DNA of 64,000 nt from an uncultured Ectothiorhodospiraceae bacterium (GTDB taxonomy: Bacteria; Pseudomonadota; Gammaproteobacteria; UBA9214), in contig CAZMAK010000006.1 of assembly GCA_964564245.1 (NCBI GenBank), forward strand, positions 1,213 to 65,212, in the 5' to 3' direction. The position numbers and the translations under genes were made by a program. Below the pieces are notes generated by a model. That model saw only the letters and a list, made by a program, of their open reading frames with translations, was not told where the DNA came from and made no database searches. Positions 39,734 through 55,241 of this stretch are shown here, piece by piece. Position 1 is the stretch's first letter; each line of letters opens with the position of its first letter.

Positions 39734-40293
39734 TGACCACGCTGACTATCACCCCGGTCCATGACCCGGCCACGGCCGAAACCTACAGTGACTTCGACAC
39801 CATTGCCGCCAGCCTGGCGGAGATCGGTGTGGATTTCGAACACTGGCGCGCCGACCGTGAACTGGCGCCCGATGCCGATCAGGACGCCGTGCTGGCAGCC
39901 TACCAGCAGTCCATCGACCGGCTCAATGAACGTTACGGATTCCGCTCCATCGACGTGGTCAGCCTGACCCCGGATCACCCGAACGCCGACATGCTGCGCA
40001 ACAAGTTTCTCGCCGAACACACCCACGCCGACTTCGAGGTACGCTTCTTCGTGGACGGCAGTGGACTGTTCTACCTGCACATCGGTGACCGGGTGTACAT
40101 GGTACTGTGCGAGCGCGGCGACCTGATCAGCGTGCCGGCCAACACCACGCACTGGTTCGACATGGGCAGCCGCCCGTTCTTCCGCTGCATCCGCTTTTTC
40201 ACCACACCGGACGGCTGGGTCGGCGACTTCACCGGTTCCGACATCGCCACGCGCTTTCCCGATTACGACAGCTTCGTCGCGCAGATGGCATGA
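39733..40293 (+). CDS. mtnD: Acireductone dioxygenase (ARD, cupin)
   Basis: [16 protein letters not shown] ... HWF cupin motifs. TGATG overlap with mtnB. Confidence 0.85.
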
Positions 40294-40976
40294 TCCGCGC
40301 CGTTCTCACGGACATCGAGGGCACCACCTCGTCGATCCGCTTTGTCCACGAGGTCCTGTTTCCCTACGCCCGTGCACACGTGGCGGATTTCGTGCGCGCG
40401 AACGCGAAAGACCCGCAGGTGGCGCCGCTGCTCGACGCCGTACGACGGGAGACCGGTGCGGATCTCAGCCTCGACGGCATCATCACACAGCTCGTCGCGT
40501 GGATCGACGCCGACCGCAAGATCACCCCGCTCAAGGCGCTGCAGGGCATGATCTGGGAGGCCGGCTACCGCAGGGGGGACTTCACCGGGCATGTCTACCC
40601 GGATGCCGCGGCACAGCTGCGCGCCTGGCATGCCGCCGGTCTGCAGCTGTATGTGTTTTCTTCCGGTTCGGTACAGGCCCAGCAATTGCTGTTCGGCTAC
40701 AGCGACGCCGGTGACCTGACCGCGCTGTTTTCGGGTTATTACGACACCCGCATCGGCAACAAGCAGGATCCGGCGGCCTACCGCGCCATTGCCGCCGCCA
40801 CCGGCCTGCCGGCACACGAGATCCTGTTCCTTTCCGATATTCACGCGGAACTGGACGCGGCGCGTACTGCCGGAATGCATACCACGATGCTGGTGCGCGA
40901 GGCGGCACCCGACGCGTCCGCCACACACCGCCAGGTTCGCGACTTCACCGCCATCGACCCGGCGACGACCGCATAG
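40290..40976 (+). CDS. mtnC: Enolase-phosphatase E1 (HAD family)
   Basis: [12 protein letters not shown] motif I. ATGA overlap with mtnD. Confidence 0.8.
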
Positions 40977-41060
40977 GGCCTGCGCCATCCGGCCCGTAGC
41001 GCTGACACTGTCACCAGACGAGGATGGTAATCTGCCCGTATTGCCGCTATCTTCCCGCCC

Positions 41061-42008
41061 ATGAAAGAAACCTGGAAAGATGCCCTCGCGCGTCAGCGCA
41101 GCGCACTGGAAACCGAGCTGAAGGCGCCCCTGCAGGACCTGGCCGCGCAATGTGCCGGAGTCTGGGGCCGGCGCGAGGAGATCGATATCGTGCTGACGGA
41201 CGGTTTTCGCCTTGTCCCGTATGGCATGTTCATGTACGCGCTGGATACCGGCGCCGTACAGATCAGCGACAACATCAGTGCCAGCGGGCTGATGCCGGAG
41301 CACTTCGGGCGCGACCGCTCCAGCCGCCCCTACATGCGCGAGGCGGTGCCGGCGCAGGGTTTCCTGCTGTCTTCCGCCTACCTGAGCCTGCGTGCCAACC
41401 GGCCATCCCTGACCGCGTTGCAGGTGGTACAAAAAGACGGGGAAACGCTTGGCTACCTGGGTGTCGACTTCGACCTGCGCGACCTGCCGGTCACGGCCCA
41501 GCACTATGAGGAATCGGATGCCTGGCGCCAGATCAAGGGCGATCCGGCCATCCGTGGCACCGTGTTCCAGCAATGCCGCGTTGAGAGCGTGATGGACCGC
41601 AACATGGAGCCGGCCATCGCCATCCTCGAGGACCTCATCACCGGGCGCGGCATGTTCCAGTGCGTGATCCACTTTTCCAGCAGCCGCGCCACGATCTGGT
41701 TCTGTGACGACCCGTTCCGCTACCGCATCCTCGACCACGAGGCACTCAGCGATCCGGATATCTGCATGCTGTATCCACGCCATGATTACCCGGCCGATGC
41801 GCAGATTCCGCAGGATCGCATCGGCCGCATCCTGCGCGGCATGCGCGAGCTGCGAACCGCGGATGAAACACTGTACCTGCGCTCGTCCTCGATCAACATC
41901 TTCAACGGCATGATCAGCCTGACCTTCTCCTGCGACGGCTCGCACTACATGTCCTGGCACGAGTTCCTTGCCAAGGACATGAGCTTCTGGGTGGGTTGCG
42001 CAGCCTGA
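41061..42008 (+). CDS. Hypothetical protein (315 aa)
   Basis: Same strand as the mtn operon and 85 nt downstream of it. No motif recognised. Confidence 0.45.
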   Translation: MKETWKDALARQRSALETELKAPLQDLAAQCAGVWGRREEIDIVLTDGFRLVPYGMFMYALDTGAVQISDNISASGLMPEHFGRDRSSRPYMREAVPAQGFLLSSAYLSLRANRPSLTALQVVQKDGETLGYLGVDFDLRDLPVTAQHYEESDAWRQIKGDPAIRGTVFQQCRVESVMDRNMEPAIAILEDLITGRGMFQCVIHFSSSRATIWFCDDPFRYRILDHEALSDPDICMLYPRHDYPADAQIPQDRIGRILRGMRELRTADETLYLRSSSINIFNGMISLTFSCDGSHYMSWHEFLAKDMSFWVGCAA

Positions 42009-42199
42009 AAATCATGACGGGCCTGCCTGGCCCATGGCCATGACGCCAGCCACAACGATCGCAGCCGGCGCTTCGCCGGCACTGGCATCTGCCCTGATGG
42101 AAAACGCAGGCGGGCGGTTCCCGGATACACAGCTGCTGACACTGCTTGCGTATTTTCGACAGCGCATGTCAAGGCATCAACCACCCCTGGTTGCAACGC

Positions 42200-44665
42200 C
42201 TATCTGCCGCCGGAATCCGGGATAATCACACGCTCGTCAGCGCCGGGCACCAGCAGGGCCGCGACGATGTACAGCAATACCGCCAGCAGTATCACCACGC
42301 CAAATCCGAAGTGAACCGCCAGCAGTGTAGCCAGCACGGCACTGACCACCGAGGCACAGCCGTTCACGCCCCACGCCCACGGAACGAGGTCCGGTGAGTG
42401 CTTCGCCAGGCGTGACAGTCCAAGCGGAAACGGCAGTCCCATGCAAAAGGCCAGCGGCGCAACCATACCCAGTGTCAGTGCAATCCGGGCCGGGAATGAC
42501 CAGCCGGTAAGCACCTGCGGCCAGTCGTGCAGCAATACCAGCCAGGCAATGGCGATCACGGCAATGCCCGCAACTGCGTACCTTACACCTCGCGCCTGGC
42601 CCTGGTGTCGTGACCAGCGCTGACTCCACAGGCTGCCAAGTCCGGCAAAGACCAGGAAACCGGTCAGCGTGGTGGCAACGGCGTACAGCGGATGATGCAG
42701 CAGCAAGGTGAAGCGCTGGATGAACGCCATCTCGATGAACAGAAATGCCAGTCCGATGGCTGTGAAGTAACCGAACACACGCCAGCGCCCGAACGGGACC
42801 GGCACCGCATCCGAACGCCCGCGCAATACCAGCAACGGCAGCAGGATCAGCACGAGACTGGCCAGCAGAGACTGTAACAGGGTGGCGACCAGCACCAGGT
42901 AACCCCATTCCAGCAACGGCATGCCACCCTGCCCGCGCAGCGCCAGGATCTCGGGTAATACCTTCCACTTGAAGAAGTGGAAAAAATACGGCCGGTCGTC
43001 GGTAGCCGGGTCCAGCGCGTACTTGTAGTCAGCGAGAAACTGCCGCCGCCCCGGCCCGGCCAGTTGCACAGCGGCCTGGTAGAAATACGGTTCGCGCAAG
43101 TGGTTACTGCGATTGGCCTCATCGGCCTGCATGCCCGGATACCAGGCCACATCAAAGCCCCAGCGGCGCACGAAACGGCGCATCCGCTCGATCTCCACGC
43201 TATTGAATGCCGTGTTCTTCACCAGCAGCGTCGCCGTCTGCCAGCTGCGGACCAGCACCAGCTGGTCGGTCGGGTGCGCTGCGCCGCCCTGCTGCAGCGC
43301 ATCCAGCGCGGTAGCGAACAGCTTGAGCATGTCGCGTGGCGGAAGGGTCACCCAGCGCGTGATCGACAGGTAGCCTTCCGGATTCAGGTGTGCGAGATAG
43401 TCGCGCAATGCCTCGACGGTGTAGAGATAGCTCTCGTTGAGTGCATACAGGCCGGCCGAGGCCGCACCGAACGCGTCCAGCAGGGCAATGTGTATCAGGT
43501 CGTAATGCGCGGTACTGCCGGCAACAAAACCACGCGCCTCCCCGACATGAACGTCGGCCTGCTGATACAGGTGCCCGGCGAAATCCGCGTAACGATTACG
43601 CACGAGATCGATGATTTGCGGATTGATCTCCACCGCCGTGACGTGCGACACGGCGTGCGACAACGCCTGCAATACGTCCATACCGGCACCGGCACCCAGT
43701 ACCAGCGCCTGGTCGATATCACGCATCCGGTAAGGTAATGCAGCGGTGGACTGACCGAGCCAGGCAAGGGCAGAGCGATCACCACGGTATTGCGTGATGG
43801 CGGTCATGCCATCACCATCGGTGAATACACCCAGTTGTGCCGGCGGTTCCTGTGTCGCCAGCAGGCTCAGTCCGGGTGCATACCGGAACGGTACCTGGCT
43901 GCTTTCCACCACGCTCAGCAGGCCCAGCGGGCTGGAGTATTCCCCGGTTACGCGGGTGCCCGGTATCTGCAACGTCTGGCTGAGCGCCTTGTAGGGCGAG
44001 AAGCGAAGTTCGCTGCCGAGAGCGCCGGCCACCAGCACGACCGCGGCCACACTGACCAGTACCGGCAGACTGCGCCAGCCGGCCAGCCCGGTTTCGCGCG
44101 CCCCGATCACAGCGGCCAGCAGTGCCAGCAGGCCGATGGCGACCAGCGCCTGCAACGGGGTAACCAGGAACAGCAGGCTGATGATGAGCAGTCCGCCCAG
44201 CCCGGCGCCCGCCAGGTCAAAGGCGTATACACGCCCGATAGACTTGTCGAAATGCATCAGGGCCAGCGCCAGCGCGGTGGCTGCACACAGGAACGGCGCC
44301 GCCAGCAGCAGGTACAGCAGCAGCAACCAGGCCGGCTGGTGCCAGTCCCACAGTACCAGCTCGGCATTGAACGGAATCTGCTGTGCCGCCAGGAAGCACA
44401 GCACCGCGCTGACCGCAAAGGCCATGATGCTGCCGGTGTAGACGGCGGCAAAATGGCGCAGCATGGGCTGTCGCAGCAGGGTGACGAGCGTGCCACTTAC
44501 CCCGTAACCCAATAGTGCCAGACTGATCACCATGTAGGCGAAATGGTGCCACTGGATGATCGAGAACAGCCGCATCAGCAGGATTTCGTAGGCCAGCACG
44601 GTCACAGACAGCAACGCCACCGAGATGACCGGCGCGCGTGGTGGTGCACCGACCTGCCGGTTCAT
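42200..44665 (-). CDS. Polytopic membrane protein with an embedded spermidine/spermine synthase-like domain
   Basis: At least 12 predicted helices flank a central SpeE-like Rossmann domain (LVLGAGAGMDVLQAL ... VTAVEINPQIIDL ... DLIHIALLDAFG). Confidence 0.65.
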   Translation of the reverse strand: MNRQVGAPPRAPVISVALLSVTVLAYEILLMRLFSIIQWHHFAYMVISLALLGYGVSGTLVTLLRQPMLRHFAAVYTGSIMAFAVSAVLCFLAAQQIPFNAELVLWDWHQPAWLLLLYLLLAAPFLCAATALALALMHFDKSIGRVYAFDLAGAGLGGLLIISLLFLVTPLQALVAIGLLALLAAVIGARETGLAGWRSLPVLVSVAAVVLVAGALGSELRFSPYKALSQTLQIPGTRVTGEYSSPLGLLSVVESSQVPFRYAPGLSLLATQEPPAQLGVFTDGDGMTAITQYRGDRSALAWLGQSTAALPYRMRDIDQALVLGAGAGMDVLQALSHAVSHVTAVEINPQIIDLVRNRYADFAGHLYQQADVHVGEARGFVAGSTAHYDLIHIALLDAFGAASAGLYALNESYLYTVEALRDYLAHLNPEGYLSITRWVTLPPRDMLKLFATALDALQQGGAAHPTDQLVLVRSWQTATLLVKNTAFNSVEIERMRRFVRRWGFDVAWYPGMQADEANRSNHLREPYFYQAAVQLAGPGRRQFLADYKYALDPATDDRPYFFHFFKWKVLPEILALRGQGGMPLLEWGYLVLVATLLQSLLASLVLILLPLLVLRGRSDAVPVPFGRWRVFGYFTAIGLAFLFIEMAFIQRFTLLLHHPLYAVATTLTGFLVFAGLGSLWSQRWSRHQGQARGVRYAVAGIAVIAIAWLVLLHDWPQVLTGWSFPARIALTLGMVAPLAFCMGLPFPLGLSRLAKHSPDLVPWAWGVNGCASVVSAVLATLLAVHFGFGVVILLAVLLYIVAALLVPGADERVIIPDSGGR

Positions 44666-44689
44666 CGATGTGTGACCGGAGCGTTCACC

Positions 44690-45424
44690 TCAGTGTCCGC
44701 CGGTCAGGGGCACGAAGGTCACCGGCAGAATCTGCCGTGTCGTCACTTCCCCGGAAGCGGATTTTTCAACCAGCAGCAGTTCCTGCACCATGAATCGCGA
44801 CCCGACCGGAATGATCATGCGGCCGCCCGGCCTGAGCTGGTGTACCAGCGGCGGTGGCACATGGCTTGCCGCCGCGGTCACGATGATCGCATCGAACGGT
44901 GCCCGCTCCTTCCAGCCGTAATAACCGTCACCGATCCTGACCTCGACGTTGTCATAACCAAGCTGCTGCAATACGCTGCGCGCCTGCTCGCCCAGTTGCG
45001 GTACGATTTCGATCGTGCTGACCTGCGCCACCAGGGCGGACAGGACCGCGGCCTGGTAACCGGAGCCGGTACCGATTTCCAGCACCGAGTCGCCGTGTCG
45101 GGTCGCCAGCAGATCGGTCATCAGTGCCACGATGTAAGGCTGGGAAATGCTTTGCCCGTAGCCGATCGGTAACGGACGGTTTTCATAGGCATGCAGCTGT
45201 TCCGCCTCCGGCACGAACCGGTGGCGCGGTACCGCGCGCATGGAATCGAGTACCGCGCGATCCAGGGTTTCCCTGCCGAGGAATTCGGCTGTTTCCCGCA
45301 CCTTCCTGCTGATGAGGTCTACCATCGCGGCGCGTTCGTCGGCGCGCCCCTGCACCGCCTGCAGTCCGTCGCTCAGGGTAATACAGACCATTCCTGCCAG
45401 CAGCGCCAGCAGACACGGGGACAT
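44690..45424 (-). CDS. pcm: Protein-L-isoaspartate O-methyltransferase with an N-terminal signal peptide
   Basis: VLEIGTGSGYQAAVLSAL SAM motif and ISQPYIVALM. The N-terminus MSPCLLALLAGMVCITLS is signal-like. Longer upstream starts are possible. Confidence 0.75.
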   Translation of the reverse strand: MSPCLLALLAGMVCITLSDGLQAVQGRADERAAMVDLISRKVRETAEFLGRETLDRAVLDSMRAVPRHRFVPEAEQLHAYENRPLPIGYGQSISQPYIVALMTDLLATRHGDSVLEIGTGSGYQAAVLSALVAQVSTIEIVPQLGEQARSVLQQLGYDNVEVRIGDGYYGWKERAPFDAIIVTAAASHVPPPLVHQLRPGGRMIIPVGSRFMVQELLLVEKSASGEVTTRQILPVTFVPLTGGH

Positions 45425-45785
45425 GCTCCCGCCACGAACGCACCGGCCGGTCACCCCGGACTCCCGGTCAACAGGTTTCCTGGCAGAAATGTCCATCGGC
45501 CGTGAGCATAACGCAACGGCCCCGCGCAGGACCTGACCCGGATCAGTTAGAACCCGTCTCATATTCCACGCGGCCGCGACCGTAGCGATTTTTGTTTCCG
45601 GCAAGGCGCGGCGCGCGTGGTGTAGCCGTGTTACATGAGCGGGCTGCTACCCGGCCAGGGGCAAAAATCGCCCGGTCCCAAAGGGTTGCGGCTGAAAGGG
45701 TATCACCGGGATACGGCTGACGGTATCGACACAGGCTAAACGACTGAACGCGGTCGCCGCCCCGCCTGGCGGCAACCGGCTGCGG

Positions 45786-47252
45786 TCACACCCCGCGCTC
45801 TTCCATGCGGCGCAGGAACTCGCCCATGATGAGGTGGTAGAGTTCGGCCCCGAGGTAGCGATCCTCGACGCCGCGGTCGATGTTCGGATTGTCATTCACC
45901 TCGATGACGTAGCCCTTGCCGTCCTTTTCCTTCACATCCACGCCGTACAGGCTGTCGCCGATCGGCTGGGTGGCGGCCAGTGCCGCACGCAACACATCGC
46001 GCGGGACCTCGAAGGTCGGCAGGGTATCGTAGCTGCCACTGGACGTGCGGGCGCCACCATGCTGGTAGATCTGCCAGTGATTCTTCACCATGTAGTAGCG
46101 GCAGGCGAACAACGGCTTGTTGTTGAAGACACCGATCCGCCAGTCGAAATCCGTGTAGAAGAATTCCTGCGCCAGCAGCAGGGCGGAATTTTTGAACAGT
46201 TCTTTCAGGCTGGCCTGCAGTTCCGTGCCGTTGCGCACCTTCACCACGCCGCGCGAAAACGATCCGTCCGGGATCTTGACCACCATCGGGTAGCCGAAGT
46301 CGGCCTCCAGTTTTTCCACCAGCCCGGGACTGCCCTTGTGCAGGATCTGGGTGCGCGGGGCCGGTACCTTGCGGGTACGGAACAGATCGGCGAGGTACAC
46401 CTTGTTGGTGCAGCGCAGGATGGAGTCCGGATCGTCGATGACCACCAGCCCCTCGGCCGCCGCCTTGCGTGCAAAGCGGTAGGTATGGTGGTCGATCGCC
46501 GTGGTCTCCCGGATGAACAGCCCGTCGAACTCGGTCAGCCGCAGGTAGTCGCGAGCCTTGATGAGCTCGACATCGATGGCAAGATCCCGGCCGGCGCGGA
46601 TGAACTGCTTGAGCGCCCCGCTGTCACTGGGCGGAAACTTTTCTTCGGGATTGATCAGGATGGCCAGGTCAAAGCGGTAACGCCTGCGCTTGCGCGCCCC
46701 GCGCCAGACCTGGCGGCTGAAACGGTCCAGCGCCTCGGCAAACGCGGTCTGGGCATCGTCATCGAGATCACGCGGGGACACCGCCTTGAGCGAGACGACT
46801 TCCCAGGCATCGCGGCAGCGCAGGTCGATCTCCAGCACCGGACACGGCAGCAACTCGAACAGCTTGCGCACCAGATCGCGGTAGGCCGGGTCCGGGTTGG
46901 ACCCGAAATAGCTCATGAGCGTCAGTTGTTCGGTCCTGTCGTGGTCCGCGAAGCTGCGCTCCAGTGCCTGTGACAGGTCATTGAGCTGCAACTGGTAGAG
47001 GGCGCGTTTGCCGAGGTCGTTGAGCACCGTCACCGAGGGAATGACGTGGTGACCGCGCGCCTCGGCCAGCAGCGAGCAGTAGTAGCCATCCGCCAGGTAG
47101 CGGTAGCTCTTGCAGAGATTGATGATCCGGATCCGCTCGGAACTGGTGAAGTGGCCTCCGTCCAGGTAGGCCTTGAAGCTCATCACCTGGTCGCTGGGAT
47201 AAAACGGCGCCCAGTCATCCAGGTCGTCGACCACGATCAGGGTTCGTGACAT
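45786..47252 (-). CDS. RimK-like ATP-grasp ligase with a roughly 170-aa N-terminal extension
   Basis: The C-terminal 300 aa is a RimK-type ATP-grasp domain (PMVVKIPDGSFSRGV ..., GVDVKE...YVIEVNDNP). The N-terminal domain is unrecognised. Start set at MSRTLIVVDD. Confidence 0.75.
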   Translation of the reverse strand: MSRTLIVVDDLDDWAPFYPSDQVMSFKAYLDGGHFTSSERIRIINLCKSYRYLADGYYCSLLAEARGHHVIPSVTVLNDLGKRALYQLQLNDLSQALERSFADHDRTEQLTLMSYFGSNPDPAYRDLVRKLFELLPCPVLEIDLRCRDAWEVVSLKAVSPRDLDDDAQTAFAEALDRFSRQVWRGARKRRRYRFDLAILINPEEKFPPSDSGALKQFIRAGRDLAIDVELIKARDYLRLTEFDGLFIRETTAIDHHTYRFARKAAAEGLVVIDDPDSILRCTNKVYLADLFRTRKVPAPRTQILHKGSPGLVEKLEADFGYPMVVKIPDGSFSRGVVKVRNGTELQASLKELFKNSALLLAQEFFYTDFDWRIGVFNNKPLFACRYYMVKNHWQIYQHGGARTSSGSYDTLPTFEVPRDVLRAALAATQPIGDSLYGVDVKEKDGKGYVIEVNDNPNIDRGVEDRYLGAELYHLIMGEFLRRMEERGV

Positions 47253-47420
47253 CGATACCGTCCATTCGGTATATCTTGCCGGTGAGCGTGTGATTCTGCG
47301 CGTTGCCGCCGTACTCCGGCAAGAGGATAACCCGGAAATTTTCGCGATCCTGGCGAGAAATATTTTTCTTGCAACCGTACGTTCCCGGATTATGCTGCGC
47401 CTTTGGTTATTGGTGATCCC

Positions 47421-48521
47421 ATGTCGCTGCTTGCAGGTGCCCGGCCGTCCGCCGTCGAAGTGTTCCCTGACCACTACCAGGCGGCGCATGACCGCTGGCA
47501 GGCGGCGCTGACCGGTCTCGCGCTGTGCACCGACCGGTGCGAATTTCCGGTCGACGGCCGCTCCCCGCAGGGTGGCGCGCTGGTGACCGACTGCGCCTGG
47601 CTGGGCCCGGACACTGCCACCCGGGTGCTGGTTGTCATCAGCGGCACACACGGTATCGAGGGGTTTGCCGGCAGCGCGGTGCTGCTGGACCTGTTGACCC
47701 GCCTGCCGGACCGGTTGCCGGACGAGCTGGCCATCCTGTGTATCCATGCCCTCAACCCGTGGGGCTACGCCTGGCACCGGCGCTGTGACGCGGAAGGCAT
47801 TGACCTGAACCGGAACTTCATCGACTTCAGCCGGCCGTTACCGGCCAACCCGGGCTATCGCGACCTGCGCGCCGCCCTGTTCGACGAAAATGCCGTCCGC
47901 CGCCAGCAGGTGCTGGATCAATACCGCCGGCAAAACGGCCAGACCGCCTACGAAATCGCCGTCAGCGGTGGCCAGTACAGTGACCCGGACGGCCCGTTCT
48001 TCGGCGGTACCCGCCCGGCACAGGGCCGCAGGACCATCGAAGACCTGATCCACCGGTACCGGCTGGCGGAACGGCGTCTGGCCGTGGTCGATGTACATAC
48101 CGGGCTGGGGGCGTACGGCGTTGGTGAAATCATCTGCGACCATGCACCGGACAGCCGCGGGGCCGCCACCGCCCGCGCATGGTACGGCGCGGAATGCACC
48201 CTGCCCGCACTGGGCACCTCCAGTTCGGTACCCAAGCTGGGCCTGCTCGACTACGCATGGCATGCCATCATGCAGGCGGACAGCTGCTTCATCACACTGG
48301 AATTCGGCACGCTGGCCACGGAAAACCTGTTTGATGTGCTGTTGCGCGATCATCGCTTCCGTGCCCTGCACGGCACACAGCCCGTCGGTCACCCGGAATT
48401 TCCGTCCCTGGTCGAGGCACTGCGCACGCACTTCTGCCCGCCGGATACGGACTGGCGCAACCGGGTACTGCACCGGGCCCGGTCGGTGATCGACCGGGCA
48501 CTGGAGGGCCTGTCATCATGA
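47421..48521 (+). CDS. M14-family zinc carboxypeptidase-like protein (AstE/AspA / DUF2817-like)
   Basis: SGTHGIEGF (HxxE zinc ligands), NPWGY...NRNF, and later DVHTGLG and ITLEFG. Divergent from the ATP-grasp gene. Confidence 0.65.
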   Translation: MSLLAGARPSAVEVFPDHYQAAHDRWQAALTGLALCTDRCEFPVDGRSPQGGALVTDCAWLGPDTATRVLVVISGTHGIEGFAGSAVLLDLLTRLPDRLPDELAILCIHALNPWGYAWHRRCDAEGIDLNRNFIDFSRPLPANPGYRDLRAALFDENAVRRQQVLDQYRRQNGQTAYEIAVSGGQYSDPDGPFFGGTRPAQGRRTIEDLIHRYRLAERRLAVVDVHTGLGAYGVGEIICDHAPDSRGAATARAWYGAECTLPALGTSSSVPKLGLLDYAWHAIMQADSCFITLEFGTLATENLFDVLLRDHRFRALHGTQPVGHPEFPSLVEALRTHFCPPDTDWRNRVLHRARSVIDRALEGLSS

Positions 48522-49624
48522 GTGATGACATCCAGCTGCGTGATGTCACGGAGGGCGACCTCGAAGCATTGCTGGCACTGGAGGAACACTCCTTCATTAC
48601 CGACCGCCTCAGCCGGCGCAGCTTCCGTCACTGGATCAGCACGGACAGCCGCGCCTTTATCGTGGCCACGGCGGGCCAGCGGCTGGTGGGGTATGTACTG
48701 GTGATCTACCACGCCGGCACCCGCCTGGCCCGGCTGTACTCGATCGCCACCGACCGGCGGTTTCGCGGACGCGGCATCGCGAGCCGGCTGATCGGGGCCG
48801 GTGAACAGGCTGCCAGCGCCAGCGGGCGTTTTTTCATGCGCCTCGAGGTCGGAATCGAGAACCGTGCGGCGATCCGGCTTTATGAATCGCTGGGCTATCT
48901 GCGCTTTGGCGTCTACGAGGACTACTACGAAGATCACGGTCATGCACTGCGCATGCAGAAACGCATCCGAAATTACCGGGTGCACGAGCAACGCGTCGAC
49001 ATCCCGTGGATTCGCCAGAACACGCCGTTCACCTGCGGTCCGGCCGCACTGATGATGGCCATGCGCGGCATCAGCAGCGACTACACGCCTTCCGAGCATG
49101 AGGAGCTGCAGATCTGGCGCGAGGCCACCACCATCTTCATGACCTCCGGGCACGGCGGCTGTCACCCGCTGGGACTGGCGCTGGCGGCCCGCCAGCGCGG
49201 TTTCCGGGCGGAGGTCTGGATGAACCAGCGCCGGCCGCTGTTCGTCGACAGCGTGCGCGACCCGAACAAGAAGCGCATCATCGAGATGGTGCACAGGGAT
49301 TACCTGCTGCAGGCCCGGCAACAGGGCATCCGCATTCACTACTCGGATATCCGCCAGGAACAGCTGGTACACGCGCTGGAGCATCACGCCATCCCGCTGG
49401 TACTGATCAGCACCTGGAGCTTCGAGCGCAAGAAATCACCGCACTGGGTCACCGTCAGCGGCCATGACAGCGAATGCCTCTACGTGCACGACCCGGATCC
49501 CGCGGAGATGAGCCAGAGCGCACTGGACTGCCAGTACCAGCCGATCGCACGTGAGGATTTCTCGCGGATATCCGTGTTCGGACAACAGCGCCTGCGCACC
49601 GCCCTGATCATATCCAGAGACTGA
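48518..49624 (+). CDS. GNAT N-acetyltransferase fused to a C39-like papain-fold cysteine peptidase domain
   Basis: N-terminal GNAT motif (RGRGIASRLIGAGEQAA). C-terminal QNTPFTCGPAALMMAM catalytic Cys context and HWVTVSGHD ... VHDPD His/Asp. ATGA overlap with the M14 gene. Confidence 0.65.
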   Translation: MSDDIQLRDVTEGDLEALLALEEHSFITDRLSRRSFRHWISTDSRAFIVATAGQRLVGYVLVIYHAGTRLARLYSIATDRRFRGRGIASRLIGAGEQAASASGRFFMRLEVGIENRAAIRLYESLGYLRFGVYEDYYEDHGHALRMQKRIRNYRVHEQRVDIPWIRQNTPFTCGPAALMMAMRGISSDYTPSEHEELQIWREATTIFMTSGHGGCHPLGLALAARQRGFRAEVWMNQRRPLFVDSVRDPNKKRIIEMVHRDYLLQARQQGIRIHYSDIRQEQLVHALEHHAIPLVLISTWSFERKKSPHWVTVSGHDSECLYVHDPDPAEMSQSALDCQYQPIAREDFSRISVFGQQRLRTALIISRD

Positions 49625-49741
49625 CCCTTTCCATGCCGCGCATTGGCGGCCGGGCTTCTTTATAATGTAACGTCAGGACCGGCAGGCAGCGCGTGCGGCG
49701 CGCCACCCTGCCGCAGCTATCAACGCTTCATGGAGACCACC

Positions 49742-51031
49742 ATGTCCGATACAGCCAGGTTGACCGTCGACGGAAAGGACTACGAACTCCCGATCGTCAC
49801 GGGTACCGAGGGAGAACGCGCCATCGACATCACCCGTCTGCGCAGCACGACGGGGCTGACCGCGCTGGATCCCGCCTTCGGCAACACCGCCAGTTGCCTG
49901 AGCAATATCACCTACATCGACGGAGACAAGGGCATCCTGCGTTACCGCGGGATCCCGCTGGAGGCCTTTGCCGCACAACCGAATTTCGTCGAGGTCGCCT
50001 GGCTGCTGATCTTCGGGCACCTGCCCACCCATACCGAGTACGAGGTATTCAGCCGCGAACTGACCGAGAACGCCAACCTCGACGAGGACATGAAACACCA
50101 CTTTGCCGGCTTCCCGCGCTCCGCGCCGCCCATGGCCATCCTGTCGGCGATGATCTCCACCCTGTCCTGCTTCCACCCGCAACTGTTCGACCTGGAAACG
50201 GAAGACCAGCTGGAAAAGGCCGCCGCGCGCCTGATCAGCAAGATCCGCACACTGGCCGCCTACACCTACCGGCGCTCGCGCGGCCTGCCCTATATCTATC
50301 CCGACCCGAAGCTGCCGTATGTCATCAACTTCCTGCACATGATGTTTTCCGAGGTATACAGTCCGTACGTGCCGGACCCGGAAGTCCGCGAGGCGCTGAA
50401 CCTGGTGCTGATCCTGCACGCCGACCACGAACAGAACTGCAGCACCTCGACCGTGCGCATGGTCGGCTCCAGCCGCGCCAACCTGTTCGCCTCGTGTGCC
50501 GCGGGCGTCTCGGCACTGTGGGGCCCCCTGCACGGCGGTGCCAACGTCAAGGTGATCGAGATGCTCGAGGCCATCCACAAGGGAAAGATGACGGCGCAGG
50601 AATACATTACCGCGGCCAAGGACAAGTCGAGCGATGTGAAGCTGATGGGATTCGGGCACCGCATCTACAAGAACTTCGATCCGCGCGCGACCATGCTGCG
50701 CGAGGTCAGCCAGAAGCTGCTTGCCAAGCTCGGCGTGTCCGACCCGCTGCTGGAGATCGCACAGAACCTTGCGGACATTGCGTTACAGGACGAATACTTC
50801 CTGGAACGCAAGCTCTACCCGAACGTGGACTTCTACAGCGGCATCATCCTGCGTGCGATCGGTATCCCGACCAACATGTTTACCGTGCTGTTCGCGATCG
50901 GCCGCCTGCCTGGCTGGATTGCGCACTGGCATGAACAGAACAGCGACCCGAACATGCGTATTGCGCGGCCGCGCCAGATCTATACCGGCAACGGCCTGTC
51001 CGGATACGTGCTGATGGAAGACCGGAAGTGA
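49742..51031 (+). CDS. gltA: Citrate synthase (type II, hexameric)
   Basis: MSDTARLTVDGKDYELPI N-terminus, GFGHRIYKNFDPRA and the HEQN active-site region. Confidence 0.9.
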   Translation: MSDTARLTVDGKDYELPIVTGTEGERAIDITRLRSTTGLTALDPAFGNTASCLSNITYIDGDKGILRYRGIPLEAFAAQPNFVEVAWLLIFGHLPTHTEYEVFSRELTENANLDEDMKHHFAGFPRSAPPMAILSAMISTLSCFHPQLFDLETEDQLEKAAARLISKIRTLAAYTYRRSRGLPYIYPDPKLPYVINFLHMMFSEVYSPYVPDPEVREALNLVLILHADHEQNCSTSTVRMVGSSRANLFASCAAGVSALWGPLHGGANVKVIEMLEAIHKGKMTAQEYITAAKDKSSDVKLMGFGHRIYKNFDPRATMLREVSQKLLAKLGVSDPLLEIAQNLADIALQDEYFLERKLYPNVDFYSGIILRAIGIPTNMFTVLFAIGRLPGWIAHWHEQNSDPNMRIARPRQIYTGNGLSGYVLMEDRK

Positions 51032-51057
51032 CCGCATGAACCAACCAGGAGCAGCCC

Positions 51058-51282
51058 ATGCCTGACACACTGATGATTCTGCCCGCCAGCGACCCGCACG
51101 CCATCCGGCTGGTGCGAGTCCCGCGTGATTACGAGGCACACGAGGCGTTTCGCCACGTTACCGGGCTGATTGCGGCGATCGAGGAAGACGACCCGGACTA
51201 CGACTGGAGCGATATCGCGGCGTCACTGGCCGACCACGGATTCGAGGTCGTCGAGTTCATCCTCGGTCCGGCGCTGGACTGA
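51058..51282 (+). CDS. Small acidic hypothetical protein (74 aa)
   Basis: AGGAGCAG ribosome-binding site 5 nt upstream, 26 nt after gltA. No motif. Confidence 0.35.
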   Translation: MPDTLMILPASDPHAIRLVRVPRDYEAHEAFRHVTGLIAAIEEDDPDYDWSDIAASLADHGFEVVEFILGPALD

Positions 51283-51306
51283 TACCCGGGCCGGGTGAAC
51301 GTCCGG

Positions 51307-51954
51307 TCAGGCGGCCGGCGACCAGCCCGCACGGCTGTCCGCGGCCAGCTCCGGCACGCCCACCGCATCCCCCTGCCAGGCCAGCGTGGTCACCGAGCGG
51401 TACGGCTGGCGTCCTGCGAGATAGCCTTCCACGGCACGCTGCGTACGCCGGTCCACCAGGTACCAGAGCGGCTGCTCCACGGTGGGCAGTTCGGCCAGTG
51501 CGGCCTTCACCCGGCTATCCCAGCCTGCGGCGAGCCGGGTGATATCACCGGGCCGGATCACCTTGCGGCACCGGCGGCAGCCGCAGTCCACCGGCATCGG
51601 CTCCCGCAGGTTGAACAGCCCGTACTCGTCGGTAATCTCTTCGCCCGCCTCGATATCGCACAGGGCGATTTCAAAACCGTAACCGGTGCTCATGGTGTTG
51701 CATTCACACCGGTGATTGACGTATTTGGCGTGGTCCCAGCTCACTACGCGCCGGCCGCGCGGATCGATATAGGAATACTTGTCGACGATCTGGCGGTGGA
51801 TTTCATCCAGCCGTTCGAACTGGCGCGGCGTCAACTCGATTTCCAGCCCGTCCCTGACATAGGTGATGGTGCCACGGGGTATGCGCCGGGTCGCGAAGAC
51901 GCCGTGACCGATGTGCACACTGACCTGCCGCAGTTCGGTGGCGGGATGAATCAT
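51307..51954 (-). CDS. SET-domain protein (putative protein-lysine methyltransferase)
   Basis: NHRCECN (NHSCxPN-type motif), EEITDEY, and a post-SET Cys cluster CGCRRCR. Confidence 0.7.
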   Translation of the reverse strand: MIHPATELRQVSVHIGHGVFATRRIPRGTITYVRDGLEIELTPRQFERLDEIHRQIVDKYSYIDPRGRRVVSWDHAKYVNHRCECNTMSTGYGFEIALCDIEAGEEITDEYGLFNLREPMPVDCGCRRCRKVIRPGDITRLAAGWDSRVKAALAELPTVEQPLWYLVDRRTQRAVEGYLAGRQPYRSVTTLAWQGDAVGVPELAADSRAGWSPAA

Positions 51955-52095
51955 GTGACCCTCCTGGCGGTCAATGTCACGGGTACGATTGAAGAATCGA
52001 CCGGCAGGCAATGCCGGGCCCGTCTCCACCCGGCTGGATGCCGGCCGGAACACTCCTCTCGCAGGTGCCTGTCACGGGTTCCGGGTGCAGGGCGG

Positions 52096-52389
52096 TCAGA
52101 GATCGAAAACGTCACTCAGCGCCTGCTGCAGCTGGCGCTCCTCGCGCAACCGCTCGATACGGCGGCGCGCCTCGGCATCGTTGCCGGCATTGGCCGCCGG
52201 CCGGGAAACCATGACCTCGAGATCCGGTATCGCCGTCAGGTCTTCCGGACCTTCATCCCATTCCGGCAGGACCGTTTCCCGGCCCTCCGGCCTGTCCGCG
52301 GCCGCCCCGGTCCCGGTTCCGGACTTGCCACGGCCGGCCCGCGCAGCCTTGCCGCCACTGCGGCCTGGACTGTGATTATTGCGCGCCAT
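52096..52389 (-). CDS. Small basic/acidic bipartite hypothetical protein
   Basis: GAGGG ribosome-binding site, Lys/Arg/Gly-rich N-terminus, acidic middle and a C-terminal helix RRRIERLREERQLQQAL. Confidence 0.35.
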   Translation of the reverse strand: MARNNHSPGRSGGKAARAGRGKSGTGTGAAADRPEGRETVLPEWDEGPEDLTAIPDLEVMVSRPAANAGNDAEARRRIERLREERQLQQALSDVFDL

Positions 52390-52693
52390 CGACGTTACCC
52401 TCGGCCCCGCTGCTGTCCGGTGCCATTGCAGCCCCGTCATCGACGGTTGCCGGTCCGGCCTCCGCGGCAGGAGCTACCGCCTCGCCCTGGTCGGCGGGAT
52501 CCGGGTAGTACCCGCCCCGCGACTCGATGCAGCCCCGCACATAGTCATTGAGCTGCTCCGGCGGCACCGCATACAGTTCCGCCTCCTGGCGACACTCCCC
52601 AGTGGGGTCTGCCGGCACCGGGGGTGCAACAACCCCAAGGCCGGCTGCAATGGCGAGGCAGACCAGTCTGCCGACGATTCTGGATTCTTTCAT
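52376..52693 (-). CDS. Small secreted hypothetical protein
   Basis: Signal peptide MKESRIVGRLVCLAIAAGLGVVA, two Cys, Pro/Ala/Asp-rich. Overlaps the downstream small gene by 14 nt. Confidence 0.35.
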   Translation of the reverse strand: MKESRIVGRLVCLAIAAGLGVVAPPVPADPTGECRQEAELYAVPPEQLNDYVRGCIESRGGYYPDPADQGEAVAPAAEAGPATVDDGAAMAPDSSGAEGNVDGAQ

Positions 52694-52817
52694 GTAGCGG
52701 TCTCCGGCAAGCTCCATAAACGGGTCGTTACGACTGGCTTATAAGGTGGCAGGAAGCACCCGGCAAACGAAATATAATTGCTTTCACGATTAACGTTGCT
52801 TATCGTCATCGCCCACC

Positions 52818-53663
52818 ATGGACATCGAACTGCTGCGCACCTTCCTCGAGGTCGTACGTACCCGCCACTTTGGCAAGGCGGCCGCGGAGCTGTGCGTCAC
52901 CCAGTCGGCCGTCAGCGCCCGTATCCGGCAACTGGAGCAGACGCTTGCCAAACCGCTGTTTGTGCGCCATCGCAACAACATCCAGCTCACGGCGGAGGGC
53001 CGGCAGTTGCGCAAGCACGCCGAGACCATCGTCCAGGTGTGGTCACGGGCACGACAGGAGACCGGGCTGGGAACGGATTACACGCGGGCACTGGCCGTCG
53101 GCGCCCTGCTGGACCTGTGGTCCACCCTGCTGGCGGGCTGGCTACCCACACTGCGGGAGCGGATGCCCGACACCGCGCTGCAGGTGGAGACCGGTACCAC
53201 CGACGCACTCATCCGCAAGCTGCAGGACAGTGTGATCGACCTGGCGATCCTGTTCGAGCCACCACAGCTACCGGCACTCGAGTTGCGGGAACTGGCAGTC
53301 ATCAATCTGGTGCTGGCCTCGACACGGCAGGGACAGACCCCGGAGCTGGCGCTTGGGCCCGGTTATGTCATGGTGGACTGGGGTACCGCCTTTGCCCAGC
53401 ATCACGCACGCCACTATCCGAACATGCCGTCCCCCGCCCTGCATATGAACCAGGGGATCCTGGTCAGGCAATACCTGCAACAGGTGCACGGGGCCGCCTA
53501 TCTGCCCGAACAGCTGCTGGCACAGGACGGCGCCGGCCGGCCGCTGTACCGCGTCGACTCGGCGGCAGTCATCGAACGGCCGGTGTACGGCGTGTTTGTT
53601 ACCGGTAATGACCGCGTCGACACCATCCGCCAGGCGCTGGACCTGGTCGCTCAACCCGCCTGA
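52818..53663 (+). CDS. LysR-family transcriptional regulator
   Basis: N-terminal HTH LRTFLEVVRTRHFGKAAAELCVTQSAVSARIRQLE and a LysR substrate-binding domain. Confidence 0.85.
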   Translation: MDIELLRTFLEVVRTRHFGKAAAELCVTQSAVSARIRQLEQTLAKPLFVRHRNNIQLTAEGRQLRKHAETIVQVWSRARQETGLGTDYTRALAVGALLDLWSTLLAGWLPTLRERMPDTALQVETGTTDALIRKLQDSVIDLAILFEPPQLPALELRELAVINLVLASTRQGQTPELALGPGYVMVDWGTAFAQHHARHYPNMPSPALHMNQGILVRQYLQQVHGAAYLPEQLLAQDGAGRPLYRVDSAAVIERPVYGVFVTGNDRVDTIRQALDLVAQPA

Positions 53664-53688
53664 CCCGCGCTGGCGGCCGGAAACGCGG

Positions 53689-54483
53689 CTACTGGCGCCG
53701 GAACAGCACGAACGAGAGATCGTCCGGCTTGTGCGGGCGTCCATCCTCCCCCGGCTGCATGCGCTCGCGACAGGCCTGTAACAGGTTCCGGCCGGCGCGG
53801 TCGAGCGGCCCCTTGCGCACCAGTTCGATGATCTCGTTGACGAACAGGTTGTCGAACAGACCGTCACTGCCCACCACCACGGTATCGTAGCGGGAAAGAT
53901 TGACGACCGGACCGATCTCGAGCCGCATGTCCGGCATGCCGACCATGTTCGAGACGATGTGACGCTCCTCGTGAAACATGGCGGCATCCGCATCGAGCAT
54001 GCCGGACGCCTCGGCATAGCCCACCGGCGAGTGCGGCACCGACTGGTACTTGAGCCTGCCGCGCTGGCCACACACCAGGATCATGGAGTCGCCCGCGTGG
54101 TAGGCACGTACCGTATCGTTGTCGATACTGACCACGGCGATGGTCGTGCCACCGCCCTGGCCACGCGCGATGACTTCCGCGTTGGCCGCCTCGATCCCGC
54201 TCAGCACGGCCTCACGCTGCGCATCACCCGACTGGCCGGTCACGCTGTCGGCAAGCTGCTGCAGGGCGAGGCCCGAGGCCAGGCTGCCGGACGGCAGGCC
54301 GCCCAGCCCGTCGGCCACGGCGACCACGGCGCTGGTCGCATCGCCCGGGATCAGCGCCGCCGCGTCCTCGTTCGGCGTTTCCCGGCCGGGGCGCGACCCG
54401 GTGTACACACAGGCCTGCCCGTCGGCCAGCGCCATGGTCAACGGCTCCGGCATGTGCATGCCCTGCAACAGCAGCACCGGCAT
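53689..54483 (-). CDS. PP2C-family Ser/Thr protein phosphatase
   Basis: GSRPGRETPNEDAAAL and VADGLGG motifs, with C-terminal DG/DN metal ligands. TGATG start/stop overlap with the upstream kinase gene. Confidence 0.75.
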   Translation of the reverse strand: MPVLLLQGMHMPEPLTMALADGQACVYTGSRPGRETPNEDAAALIPGDATSAVVAVADGLGGLPSGSLASGLALQQLADSVTGQSGDAQREAVLSGIEAANAEVIARGQGGGTTIAVVSIDNDTVRAYHAGDSMILVCGQRGRLKYQSVPHSPVGYAEASGMLDADAAMFHEERHIVSNMVGMPDMRLEIGPVVNLSRYDTVVVGSDGLFDNLFVNEIIELVRKGPLDRAGRNLLQACRERMQPGEDGRPHKPDDLSFVLFRRQ

Positions 54484-55241
54484 CAGGAATGTCCCCATTG
54501 CAGGTTTTCCAGGTACTCGCGCAGCTGCCCGGCGGTGCGGAATTTCTTCAGGATCAGGCTGCGTTTGAGGCCCATGCAGACCGCCTTGATCTCGGGCGGC
54601 TGCCGGCTGTAGTAACGCCGGCCGCCGATGGCCTCGTAGAGGATCTTCACCAGGTCCACCACGTCATCGCGGATATTCTCGGGCCTCGGCTGCCCCCAGT
54701 GAAAGAAATCCAGCAGCTTCAGGTCGAAACCCAGGCCATAGCGCTGCACCATGATGTTGTCGGTGTGCAGGTCACCGTGATATTCCTTCATCTGGTGTAT
54801 GCACTCGATCCCGGCGGCCAGCGCATGCAGCAGGTGCAGGGCCGGAAACGCGGGCAGGCGCTTGCCGGGCTGGCGGGCCAGGAACTCCGAGAGCAGCTCG
54901 CCCTCGACGAAGTCCGAAACCAGCAGGGTGATCGGCAGCTTGTGGTAGGTGATGGTTTCATGGGTGTGATACTGGATGGCAATCGGGCAATGGCGCAGTT
55001 TGTGCAGCTTGCGCGCATAGAAATTGATGGTCTTGTCACCGGGGTTGCGCTGCGGATAAAACACCTTCACGGCACGCTCGATCTGGGTCCGGTGTTCACG
55101 CACCAGGAACACCTCGCCTTCCCAGCCGCGACCCAGCAGTTTGATGACCTCGTATTTGCGCGCCAGCACGCGACCCGGCTGAATGTCGAAGCGATCGATG
55201 ACCGTAGGACGTGTCAGCTGCTTCATCATGCCGCCAAGCAT
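54483..55241 (-). CDS. Mini protein-kinase-fold protein (252 aa; Hanks/Kdo/RIO-like)
   Basis: Gly loop LGRGWEGEVFLV, catalytic Lys in AVKVF, hinge LVSDFVEGE, catalytic loop HGDLHTDNIMV and DFFHWG in place of DFG. Confidence 0.65.
   Translation of the reverse strand: MLGGMMKQLTRPTVIDRFDIQPGRVLARKYEVIKLLGRGWEGEVFLVREHRTQIERAVKVFYPQRNPGDKTINFYARKLHKLRHCPIAIQYHTHETITYHKLPITLLVSDFVEGELLSEFLARQPGKRLPAFPALHLLHALAAGIECIHQMKEYHGDLHTDNIMVQRYGLGFDLKLLDFFHWGQPRPENIRDDVVDLVKILYEAIGGRRYYSRQPPEIKAVCMGLKRSLILKKFRTAGQLREYLENLQWGHS

Follow-up and report, generated by a model that had tools for sequence, protein, structure and literature searches.

What is the function of three enzyme genes that are placed together, in divergent orientation, in the 64,000-nucleotide stretch of DNA analysed here (the window)? 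The original prediction offered either a cycle that adds and removes an amino-acid tail or a pathway for an N-acyl-amino-acid metabolite, and these two are still the right pair of hypotheses. A ligase gene on the minus strand (45786..47252, 488 aa) lies opposite a two-gene operon on the plus strand, in which a gene encoding a DUF2817 zinc hydrolase (47421..48521, 366 aa) is followed by a gene (48518..49624, 368 aa) encoding a GNAT acetyltransferase (NAT/RimI-like, aa ~1-150) fused to a DUF3335 C39-like cysteine peptidase domain (aa 162-365). The two plus-strand genes are coupled by an ATGA stop/start overlap at 48518-48521. The three enzyme classes, the divergent layout, this coupling and the intact active sites had all been anticipated, and the open reading frames, Pfam matches and invariant residues agree with them. 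The N-terminus of the ligase, MSRTLIVVDD, was set from the ORFs and the N-termini of homologues; a 663-aa ORF reaching 47777 was rejected as the ligase gene, being a high-GC artefact. The DUF2817 gene might alternatively begin with a TTG at 47403. The 168 bp read between the divergent genes (47253..47420) presumably hold the promoters of both directions, as the layout suggests, and gave no match to the sigma-70 consensus or to Rfam. A citrate synthase gene is found immediately downstream of the cassette.

The ligase is made up of an RLAN domain (aa 1-185, nt 46698-47252, minus strand) and a RimK/LysX-type ATP-grasp domain (aa 186-488, nt 45786-46697, minus strand), and is predicted to form amide bonds. 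Its N-terminal domain, previously described as unrecognised, corresponds to Pfam RLAN (PF14401, 'RimK-like ATPgrasp N-terminal domain'), which matches aa 27-174 at 3e-48 with 163.6 bits against a cut-off of 25. The C-terminal half is matched by PF08443 (28.6 bits, cut-off 21) and, under the family cut-off, by Dala_Dala_lig_C (23.6 bits). LysX and RimK could be aligned over the motifs PMVVKIPDGS, LLAQEF, DWRIG and GVDV...IEVNDNPN, which brings the Lys, hinge and Mg motifs of the ATP-grasp fold into register; with its nucleotide and Mg motifs present, this half is predicted to be catalytically intact. By its RLAN domain, its ATP-grasp domain and its neighbourhood the protein is a member of the RLAN-containing RimK-like ATP-grasp ligases, a medium-sized family that forms 753 clusters at 50% identity; the ligase is strikingly conserved, with 67-70% identity between gammaproteobacterial orders. 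Canonical RimK was rejected as its identity, with scores of 18.2 against 331 for NF007764 and 66.2 against 143.4 for TIGR00768 (rimK_fam). The best NCBIfam match is LysX_arch (75.4 bits, cut-off 275.6) and the best solved structures are 3vpd and 3vpb. In RimK a basic loop (R211, H215, R216) holds poly-Glu (PMC10092738); the aligned loop of the present ligase reads HWQIYQHGG, closer to LysX, which counts against a tail on a protein. In the model proposed for the RLAN half, which may be new, the pre-ATP-grasp and central domains were copied and the copy has degenerated, so that it would lack the ATP-binding lysine.

The second gene product belongs to DUF2817 (PF10994, 4e-88, 296.5 bits against a cut-off of 23). 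Residues H77, E80, N130, R131, H226 and E294 do not vary among 58 homologues, and the nearest solved relative is MpaA, a weak match (E 1e-3, 22.9 bits) in which the HxxE and NR motifs are included. The Pfam match, the similarity to MpaA and these residues, which comprise the HxxE...H ligands, the catalytic Glu and an Asn-Arg carboxylate clamp, predict an M14-clan zinc carboxypeptidase or amidase. The earlier assignment to the AstE/AspA type does not hold, as no AstE_AspA match was obtained at E<=0.01, whereas a genuine AstE_AspA_cat protein (from locus L141) scored 104 bits with the same tool. The ORF list of the window contains no ast operon genes near the cassette. The absence of an astABCD operon had been noted at the outset, and the enzyme is not a canonical astE product.

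The third gene product is matched by Acetyltransf_1 (4e-15, 56.5 bits against a cut-off of 20.7) and its acetyl-CoA motif R83-G84-x-G86-x-A88 is invariant in 56 homologues. The best structural relatives of this GNAT are protein N-alpha-acetyltransferases (4pv6 Ard1, 2e-10) and RimI; it is not a RimI equivalog (66.7 against 86.4 for TIGR01575), but its best solved relatives are still NATs. The domain fused to it had been called C39-like, with its Cys/His/Asp context intact. The papain-fold assignment stands and the label was corrected to DUF3335 (PF11814, 1e-86, 289.8 bits), as Peptidase_C39_2 is only marginal (26.4 bits, cut-off 24). C173, H309 and D325 are invariant in the 56 homologues, and the matches of the DUF3335 model include C39 leader-peptide peptidases as well as an isopeptidase; the domain is therefore best described as a predicted C39-like papain fold with a Cys-His-Asp triad. 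A strict Peptidase_C39 was rejected (PF03412, 16.5 bits against 22), with neither a transporter nor a conserved small ORF nearby.

The claim that the three genes sit together as a unit was confirmed and they co-occur across genomes, since the same divergent trio is present in 47 of 62 species-level loci with enough flanking sequence, a count dominated by Methylococcales so that the loci are not independent. The grouping is not due to chance, because these 47 loci come from different species and keep the trio while their surroundings differ. The trio was found again at 35% RLAN identity. Thirteen of the 62 loci have the ligase alone, which counts against a protein tail. Among more distant relatives the GNAT-DUF3335 gene lies directly upstream of the ligase gene (in locus L096 the two overlap), or a lone GNAT is present, or GNAT, RLAN and ligase are fused in one protein, in which case the GNAT is 46% identical to that of the window. 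Since these variants keep GNAT and ligase, these two can be regarded as the core and the two hydrolases, which come and go, as accessories, rather than the three equal partners originally envisaged. Small ORFs (20-95 aa) lying no more than 1.5 kb from the trio are conserved in one genus-level group at most, and no gene for a carrier protein, LysW-like or other, was found near it, both of which also count against a protein tail. Lysine or arginine biosynthesis genes were likewise not found near the trio, and none of the PADLOC defence models matched the ligase, DUF2817, GNAT-DUF3335 or SET proteins.

The SET protein just mentioned is a methyltransferase of 215 aa (51307..51954, minus strand; Pfam SET 4e-10) whose gene lies 1.7 kb from the cassette. 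With the SET protein of locus L087, which belongs to a distant lineage, it shares 46% identity (2e-65); there the SET gene begins 12 nt after a GNAT-RLAN-ligase fusion. Elsewhere this SET family adjoins canonical RimK, AstE-like, GNAT, C39-like, kinase and LysR genes, and in other lineages clusters such as AstE<-RimK<-retropepsin <> GNAT->SET and C39->SET->kinase operons contain the same kinds of parts as the cassette, built around canonical RimK. The SET methyltransferase is thus a possible associated component of the cassette, and its role as a hub common to the cassette and to canonical RimK clusters may be new. However, none of 80 SET loci has an RLAN ligase, and the direct link occurs in two lineages only, the window's family and L087, which counts against a protein tail. 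In the window, Pfam also identified a LysR regulator (52818-53663, plus), a PP2C phosphatase (53689-54498, minus) and a small Ser/Thr kinase (54483-55241, minus). LysR and kinase orthologues (41% and 57% identity) flank SET in independent metagenome loci, and the same gene order is found in L178, a relative with 81% identity. These genes are linked to SET, their link to the cassette being tentative.

The explanation we prefer, with slightly less than even confidence, is that the cassette is a cytoplasmic module for writing an amide-linked tail onto a peptide or protein and erasing it again. The chemistry and the order of steps that we infer are as follows. The ligase would turn a carboxylate of the substrate into an acyl-phosphate and attach an amino acid, glutamate-like by analogy with the family, with RLAN most likely being a docking or oligomerisation module. 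GNAT would acetylate the alpha-amino group of the same substrate, and the C39-like cysteine peptidase would cleave a peptide or isopeptide bond, which may free the amine for acetylation. The DUF2817 hydrolase, with its carboxylate-binding Asn-Arg motif, would shorten the tail from the free C-terminus. A peptide or protein is preferred to a small metabolite as substrate because the ATP-grasp motifs align with those of RimK and LysX, both acting on protein C-termini, because the GNAT resembles protein N-alpha-acetyltransferases most closely and because the DUF3335 model matches leader-peptide peptidases and an isopeptidase. Moreover, the catalytic residues are invariant, the trio is linked, GNAT-ligase fusions exist, and a protein-methyltransferase family (SET) adjoins both the fusion gene and canonical RimK clusters. 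A precedent for this reading is the experimentally established cycle in which a tail on ribosomal protein S6 (RpsF) is added by RimK and removed by RimB (PMC11957791, PMC7343187).

The serious rival, which we consider unlikely on present evidence, is a small-metabolite module. An amino acid in free form would be N-acetylated by GNAT and coupled by the ligase to a second one, giving an N-acetyl di- or oligopeptide comparable to N-acetylglutaminylglutamine amide in bacteria or N-acetylaspartylglutamate in mammals; its breakdown or recycling would fall to DUF2817 and the papain-like domain. The fusions and the GNAT-only partners make GNAT and ligase the minimal unit, and in the NAGGN dipeptide synthetase Ngg a GNAT is likewise fused to an ATP-grasp ligase, which speaks for a metabolite and against a protein tail. 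The same can be said of the missing gene for a substrate protein or peptide conserved near the trio, and of the fact that MpaA, the nearest characterised DUF2817 relative, cleaves a free tripeptide, while AstE relatives too act on small molecules. However, for the Ngg model TIGR03103 the score is only 17.6 bits where 569 are required, the GNAT is nearest to protein N-terminal acetyltransferases, and the SET association together with the canonical RimK links of the SET family points to proteins. The conservation of the ligase between orders also suits a macromolecular partner better, which is a weak argument.

A wider form of the protein-tail proposal is improbable, more so than a metabolite. 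In it the cassette would be one arm of an undescribed bacterial protein-modification network that marks a conserved protein of the cell with a combinatorial 'tail code' and erases it again; swappable RimK-type ligases (canonical or RLAN) would work with an M14-clan hydrolase, a protease, a NAT-like GNAT, a dedicated SET lysine methyltransferase and a small kinase/PP2C pair. The targets might be the ribosomal S6/S18 pair or the downstream citrate synthase, and RLAN would be a dead ATP-grasp copy serving for substrate docking.

Cytoplasmic recycling of cell-wall peptides is very unlikely. DUF2817 would act like MpaA on gamma-D-Glu-Dap, the papain-like domain as endo- or isopeptidase and the ligase in a Ddl-type re-ligation, in keeping with the MpaA (22.9 bits) and Dala_Dala_lig_C (23.6 bits) matches; but the supporting scores are all below family cut-offs, the murein-recycling genes ampG, ldcA, mpl and nagZ are not conserved near the trio, and GNAT is left without a role. 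Still less credible is polyamine conjugation comparable to that of glutathionylspermidine synthetase/amidase, in which the ligase would join a carboxylate to a polyamine, the papain-fold domain would hydrolyse the conjugate and GNAT would acetylate the polyamine. A spermidine-synthase-like membrane protein gene adjoins the ligase in the window's family, in L087 the fusion gene has polyamine biosynthesis genes as neighbours, and SpeG-type acetyltransferases are among the weaker GNAT matches; however, such neighbours occur in these two lineages and are absent from other loci, and the ligase falls in the RimK/LysX clade rather than in the glutathionylspermidine synthetase family. Maturation of a ribosomal peptide (graspetide or microviridin-like), with ATP-grasp ligase, GNAT and C39 peptidase acting on a precursor as in the parts list of microviridin clusters, is the most improbable of all, given the lack of a transporter and of a small ORF conserved across lineages within 1.5 kb, the housekeeping-like surroundings and the very high conservation.

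If the tail is indeed placed on a protein, the cassette would be a second bacterial RimK-like system, with acetylation and two erasers, and reversible post-translational tailing would reach beyond ribosomal protein S6. If instead a metabolite is made, methanotrophs and marine gammaproteobacteria would contain a new N-acetyl peptide that might serve as an osmolyte or chelator. In either case the enzymes lend themselves to direct testing, being soluble and having well-defined active sites; the half-copy model of RLAN and the SET hub, which may be new, would focus further work.

As regards known systems, RLAN-type neighbourhoods were reportedly catalogued by comparative genomics by Iyer, Abhiman, Burroughs & Aravind in 2009 (Mol Biosyst 5:1636). 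All three proteins match the catalogued 'RimK family protein' neighbourhoods (PF14401/PF10994/PF11814) strongly, with no difference found, and the window holds an ordinary member. The view that the cassette is not any named system therefore overstates its novelty: NCBI names the homologues 'RimK family protein' and 'GNAT family N-acetyltransferase/peptidase C39 family protein', and according to a 2023 review (PMC10318531) the GNAT-DUF3335 fusion had already been pointed out by Iyer et al. 2009. All three families are thus catalogued and uncharacterised, and no experimental study of the RLAN family or the cassette was found in the searchable literature.

Eukaryotic TTLL glutamylases and CCP (M14) deglutamylases also pair an ATP-grasp ligase with an M14-clan carboxypeptidase on a protein tail, an analogy with no sequence relationship beyond the superfamily. 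The synthetase Ngg and the mammalian NAT8L, RIMKLA-B and aspartoacylase combine GNAT, a RimK-like ATP-grasp ligase and a metallohydrolase to make and degrade an N-acetyl dipeptide, and some relatives of the cassette likewise fuse GNAT to the ligase. However, the low TIGR03103 score comes from the GNAT part only, no AsnO-type amidotransferase is found near the cassette, and its hydrolase is not of the AstE/AspA type. The LysX/ArgX-LysW ligases have the HW...GG substrate loop in common with the present ligase and their pathway likewise ends with a metallopeptidase freeing the product, but the LysX_arch score is far under its cut-off and a LysW-like carrier is missing. The S6 polyglutamylation system RimK/RimB (with RimA) resembles the cassette in placing a RimK-family ATP-grasp ligase, with the ATP, Mg and hinge motifs in common, beside a peptidase able to undo the ligation. 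Nevertheless the cassette ligase has the additional RLAN and does not keep the poly-Glu-binding basic loop, the peptidases are C39-like and M14-like instead of retropepsin-like, and GNAT is an obligatory partner in the cassette.

The ligase (488 aa) is encoded on the minus strand at 45786-47252, and its gene is separated by an intergenic gap of 168 bp from a divergent DUF2817 gene (47421-48521, plus strand, 366 aa), which is followed by a gene encoding a GNAT-DUF3335 fusion (48518-49624, plus strand, 368 aa). The ATGA overlap from which translational coupling had been proposed is present, the TGA stop of the second gene overlapping the ATG of the third. A 663-aa ORF (45786-47777, minus strand) that extends the ligase upstream was considered a high-GC artefact and not a gene, since the start motif M-S/A-x-T-L-I/L-V-V-D is common to 120 of the 120 closest database homologues. 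A 379-aa antisense ORF over the ligase gene (45834-46973, plus strand) was also regarded as spurious, as is typical of DNA of 64% GC. The GC content is uniform throughout the window (~0.60-0.68) and nothing suggests a recent insertion. No match to Rfam models was obtained in 41000-53000, nor to the sigma-70 consensus in the divergent intergenic region. The middle of the latter (47339-47359) contains an inverted repeat with 7-bp arms (TTTTCGC...GCGAGAA) and, after it, a run rich in T; this element was scored as terminator-like by the scan although its location suits an operator better.

The N-terminal domain of the ligase, described as unrecognised in the original prediction, is a named Pfam family, RLAN (RimK-like ATPgrasp N-terminal domain, PF14401; 3e-48, aa 27-174), and is followed by RimK/ATP-grasp domains. 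For the ATP-grasp half the nearest NCBIfam models were LysX, rimK_fam and MptN, all with scores far under the cut-offs, for which reason a canonical RimK identity was rejected; an Ngg identity was rejected as well. By sequence the closest solved structures are LysX, ArgX and RimK, with which the Lys, hinge and Mg motifs of the ligase align. Structure prediction of the N-terminal domain, which had been suggested from the outset, gave a confident AlphaFold2 model (46-sequence alignment, pLDDT 89.5, pTM 0.85) whose order of secondary structures fits a pre-ATP-grasp domain and then a central domain, the strand of the ATP-binding Lys of RimK corresponding to VLEIDL in RLAN. On this model RLAN is read as a degenerate and probably inactive copy of part of the ligase fold, which may function in docking or oligomerisation. 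Profile-profile comparison of RLAN with the ATP-grasp half of its own protein gave no significant similarity. Conserved positions across the family are found only in the motif N-L-x(5)-Y-x(3)-G-Y-Y-x-S-L-L-A-x-A-R, and the two cysteines are variable and therefore not catalytic.

The domain matches uphold the three predicted enzyme classes (ligase, zinc hydrolase and GNAT/C39-like fusion), but not the assignment of the hydrolase to the AstE/AspA type. This protein belongs to DUF2817 (PF10994, 4e-88) and has no match to the AstE_AspA model, whereas the same tool gives 104 bits for a genuine AstE-type protein of another locus; a role as canonical astE in arginine succinyltransferase metabolism was thus rejected. 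Its sole characterised match is MpaA, a weak one (22.9 bits; PDB 5hxd at 1e-3), in an alignment that includes both the zinc-binding HxxE motif and the carboxylate clamp formed by Asn and Arg. The third gene matches Acetyltransf_1 (4e-15) and DUF3335 (PF11814, 1e-86), the match to Peptidase_C39_2 being marginal, and among solved structures its GNAT half most resembles enzymes that acetylate protein N termini, with Ard1 first (2e-10) and Naa30, Naa20 and RimI after it. When translations from related loci were aligned (58 of DUF2817 and 56 of GNAT-DUF3335), the zinc ligands H77, E80 and H226 and the catalytic Glu E294 were found to be invariant, together with N130 and R131, as were R83, G84, G86 and A88 of the GNAT and, in DUF3335, C173, H309 and D325 as well as C215, H216 and H324. 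The zinc-ligand set and the Cys/His/Asp context are consequently intact, as predicted, and judged by their residues all three proteins look catalytically competent. The predicted structure of DUF3335 (pLDDT 82, pTM 0.85) confirms a putative papain-fold C39-like cysteine peptidase, and it speaks to the fold and not to the kind of target, be it peptide bonds, isopeptide bonds or small peptides.

The ligase belongs to a large family (at least 8000 scored candidates, all with E<=1e-10), whose members are named 'RimK family protein' by NCBI. A genome scan using one genome per species confirmed 360 loci, and the 80 best were analysed. In 62 of these the sequence upstream of the ligase extended for 3.6 kb or more, and in 47 of the 62 DUF2817 and GNAT-DUF3335 were directly upstream and divergent as in the window, so that the expected conservation of the neighbourhood is observed. 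Thirteen loci had neither gene within 10 kb and two had one. Methylococcales dominate the sample and the 47 loci are therefore not independent events. No gene family other than the trio was shared across lineages near the ligase in these best 80 of 360 loci. The flanking genes differ, being dnaX-ybaB-recR in Methylobacter, others in Hahellaceae, and citrate synthase and PCMT in the relatives of the window, and the three genes thus move together as one unit.

In four Methylomicrobium loci (L034, L038, L041 and L052) and one Methylococcaceae MAG (L031) the ligase is beside a 313-aa protein kinase, with no DUF2817 or GNAT-DUF3335 within 10 kb; a close relative (L048) has all four genes. The hydrolase/GNAT pair of those five was either lost or moved recently. 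The kinase beside the orphan ligase of L041 was rejected as a cassette partner, as this is only synteny within Methylomicrobium.

A search of 1.84 billion representative proteins with the RLAN domain only gave 753 clusters at E<=1e-3. Among the distant relatives, the full divergent trio is present in L092/L093 (RLAN 35% identical to that of the window). In L096 (32%) GNAT-DUF3335 is directly upstream of the ligase and overlaps it, with no DUF2817, while L094 (40%) has a stand-alone divergent GNAT and no peptidases, and L091 (30%) has the ligase alone. Moreover, L085-L090 (30-37%) encode single GNAT-RLAN-ATP-grasp polypeptides of 636-663 aa, one of them with a GNAT domain 46% identical to that of the window (7e-34). 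This fusion, along with the adjacency of the genes, indicates that GNAT and ligase are the functional core. From these comparisons DUF3335 usually accompanies the GNAT, and DUF2817 is the most dispensable part.

In the fusion locus L087 a SET gene begins 12 nt past the stop of the GNAT-RLAN-ligase gene, and along its whole length the encoded protein shares 46% identity (2e-65) with the SET-domain protein of the window (Pfam; 51307-51954, minus strand). When metagenomes were scanned with this family, 80 loci were obtained, none with an RLAN ligase. The recurrent neighbours of SET were LysR (10 loci), an AstE_AspA-type hydrolase (8), a small Ser/Thr kinase orthologous to that of the window (57% identity; 6), a 174-aa GNAT (6), canonical RimK with a RimB-type retropepsin-like protease (4) and a stand-alone C39-like peptidase (3). 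The order C39, SET, kinase occurs in three loci. In three others named here, L115 (592-5711), L116 (3618-7581) and L117 (4825-9805), genes for the retropepsin-like protease, canonical RimK and an AstE-like hydrolase are divergent from those for the 174-aa GNAT and SET, with or without LysR after them. No description of this layout was found in the accessible literature. Canonical RimK and the RLAN ligase are therefore each accompanied by parts of similar kinds, in sets that comprise a ligase of the RimK type, a hydrolase of the M14 clan, a protease and a GNAT, and the SET family is the neighbour common to the two sets. The order kinase-PP2C-LysR-SET-citrate synthase-GNAT/C39-DUF2817, divergent from the ligase, is found in the window and in L178 (81% identity); the direct link between SET and RLAN ligase, in two lineages only, is suggestive. 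Using hhalign with shallow alignments, DUF3335 and the cassette GNAT were weakly similar to the stand-alone C39-like genes (E 0.007) and the 174-aa GNATs (E 0.014) beside SET; orthology was rejected and these were taken as members of the same clan only.

Other genes are found around these. The SET gene of the window is in a cluster (51307-55241) with a 113-aa ORF and the genes for LysR, a PP2C phosphatase and a Ser/Thr kinase of small size. The LysR and kinase genes of this cluster have orthologues that flank SET in independent metagenome loci, and PP2C is also present in L098, the sole window-like metagenome locus. A citrate synthase gene (49643-51031, plus strand, likely true start near 49730) lies ~100 nt beyond the GNAT/C39 gene in the same orientation, and so may be co-transcribed with it. 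The arrangement is the same in the relatives L005, L007, L008, L013 and L178. In two Methylobacter loci (L044 and L060) a citrate synthase is ~6 kb from the trio, and in an unrelated metagenome locus (L167) a SET gene (78-677) and a citrate synthase gene (668-1957) overlap, both being on one strand. At 42200-45604 (minus strand) there is a pair of genes, for a protein-L-isoaspartate O-methyltransferase whose hydrophobic N-terminal extension may be a signal peptide and, directly downstream, for a polytopic membrane protein of 821 aa that has a spermidine-synthase-like domain; this pair is conserved next to the ligase in L007, L008, L013 and L178. Putative methionine-salvage-like genes, for acireductone dioxygenase and enolase-phosphatase as judged from their translations, lie at 39706-40976. 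In L087 (8001-15881), beyond the genes for the fusion and for SET, the opposite strand carries four genes (Pfam Arginase, Orn_DAP_Arg_deC, Sacchrp_dh and arginine decarboxylase) that suggest polyamine biosynthesis.

Enzymes of the RimK/LysX clade use ATP to activate a carboxylate for attack by the alpha-amine of Glu or of aminoadipate, and RimK with the co-encoded protease RimB adds and removes glutamates on ribosomal protein S6 (PMC4741518, PMC7343187, PMC11957791). From this precedent and the present evidence we favour, at somewhat under even confidence, a module that writes and erases a peptide or protein tail. The ligase would extend a carboxylate, the NAT-like GNAT would cap an alpha-amine, the C39-like domain would cut and DUF2817 would trim from a free C-terminus. 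Against this reading, no conserved substrate gene was found near the trio, and where RimK has a basic loop that binds poly-Glu, the ligase of the window has a LysX-like HW...GG loop. Dipeptide-osmolyte synthetases are likewise built from a GNAT and an ATP-grasp part. For these three reasons the production and recycling of an N-acetyl peptide as a small metabolite is a serious, though less likely, rival. The recycling of cell-wall peptides, the conjugation of polyamines and RiPP biosynthesis, the last also counted among the rejected readings, are minor alternatives, and a defence system was rejected as none of the cassette proteins matched known defence-system models.

Full-text literature searches found no functional study of the RLAN/RimK family, its DUF/Pfam partners or the trio, and no experimental work on the cassette was found in the searchable literature. 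Iyer et al. (2009) reportedly defined RLAN and discussed these neighbourhoods. A 2023 review credits the GNAT-DUF3335 fusion to the same authors (PMC10318531). In the original prediction the cassette was not recognised as any named system; all three families are in Pfam and the NCBI product names are already specific, so that, with the prior report of the fusion, it is an ordinary member of a catalogued kind whose function is predicted only. It is a well-conserved and tractable unknown that would not surprise a comparative-genomics specialist, while what may be new is the view of RLAN drawn from its predicted structure, and the network centred on SET. Within this network, the divergent clusters of L115, L116 and L117 are the canonical-RimK counterpart of the layout of the window.
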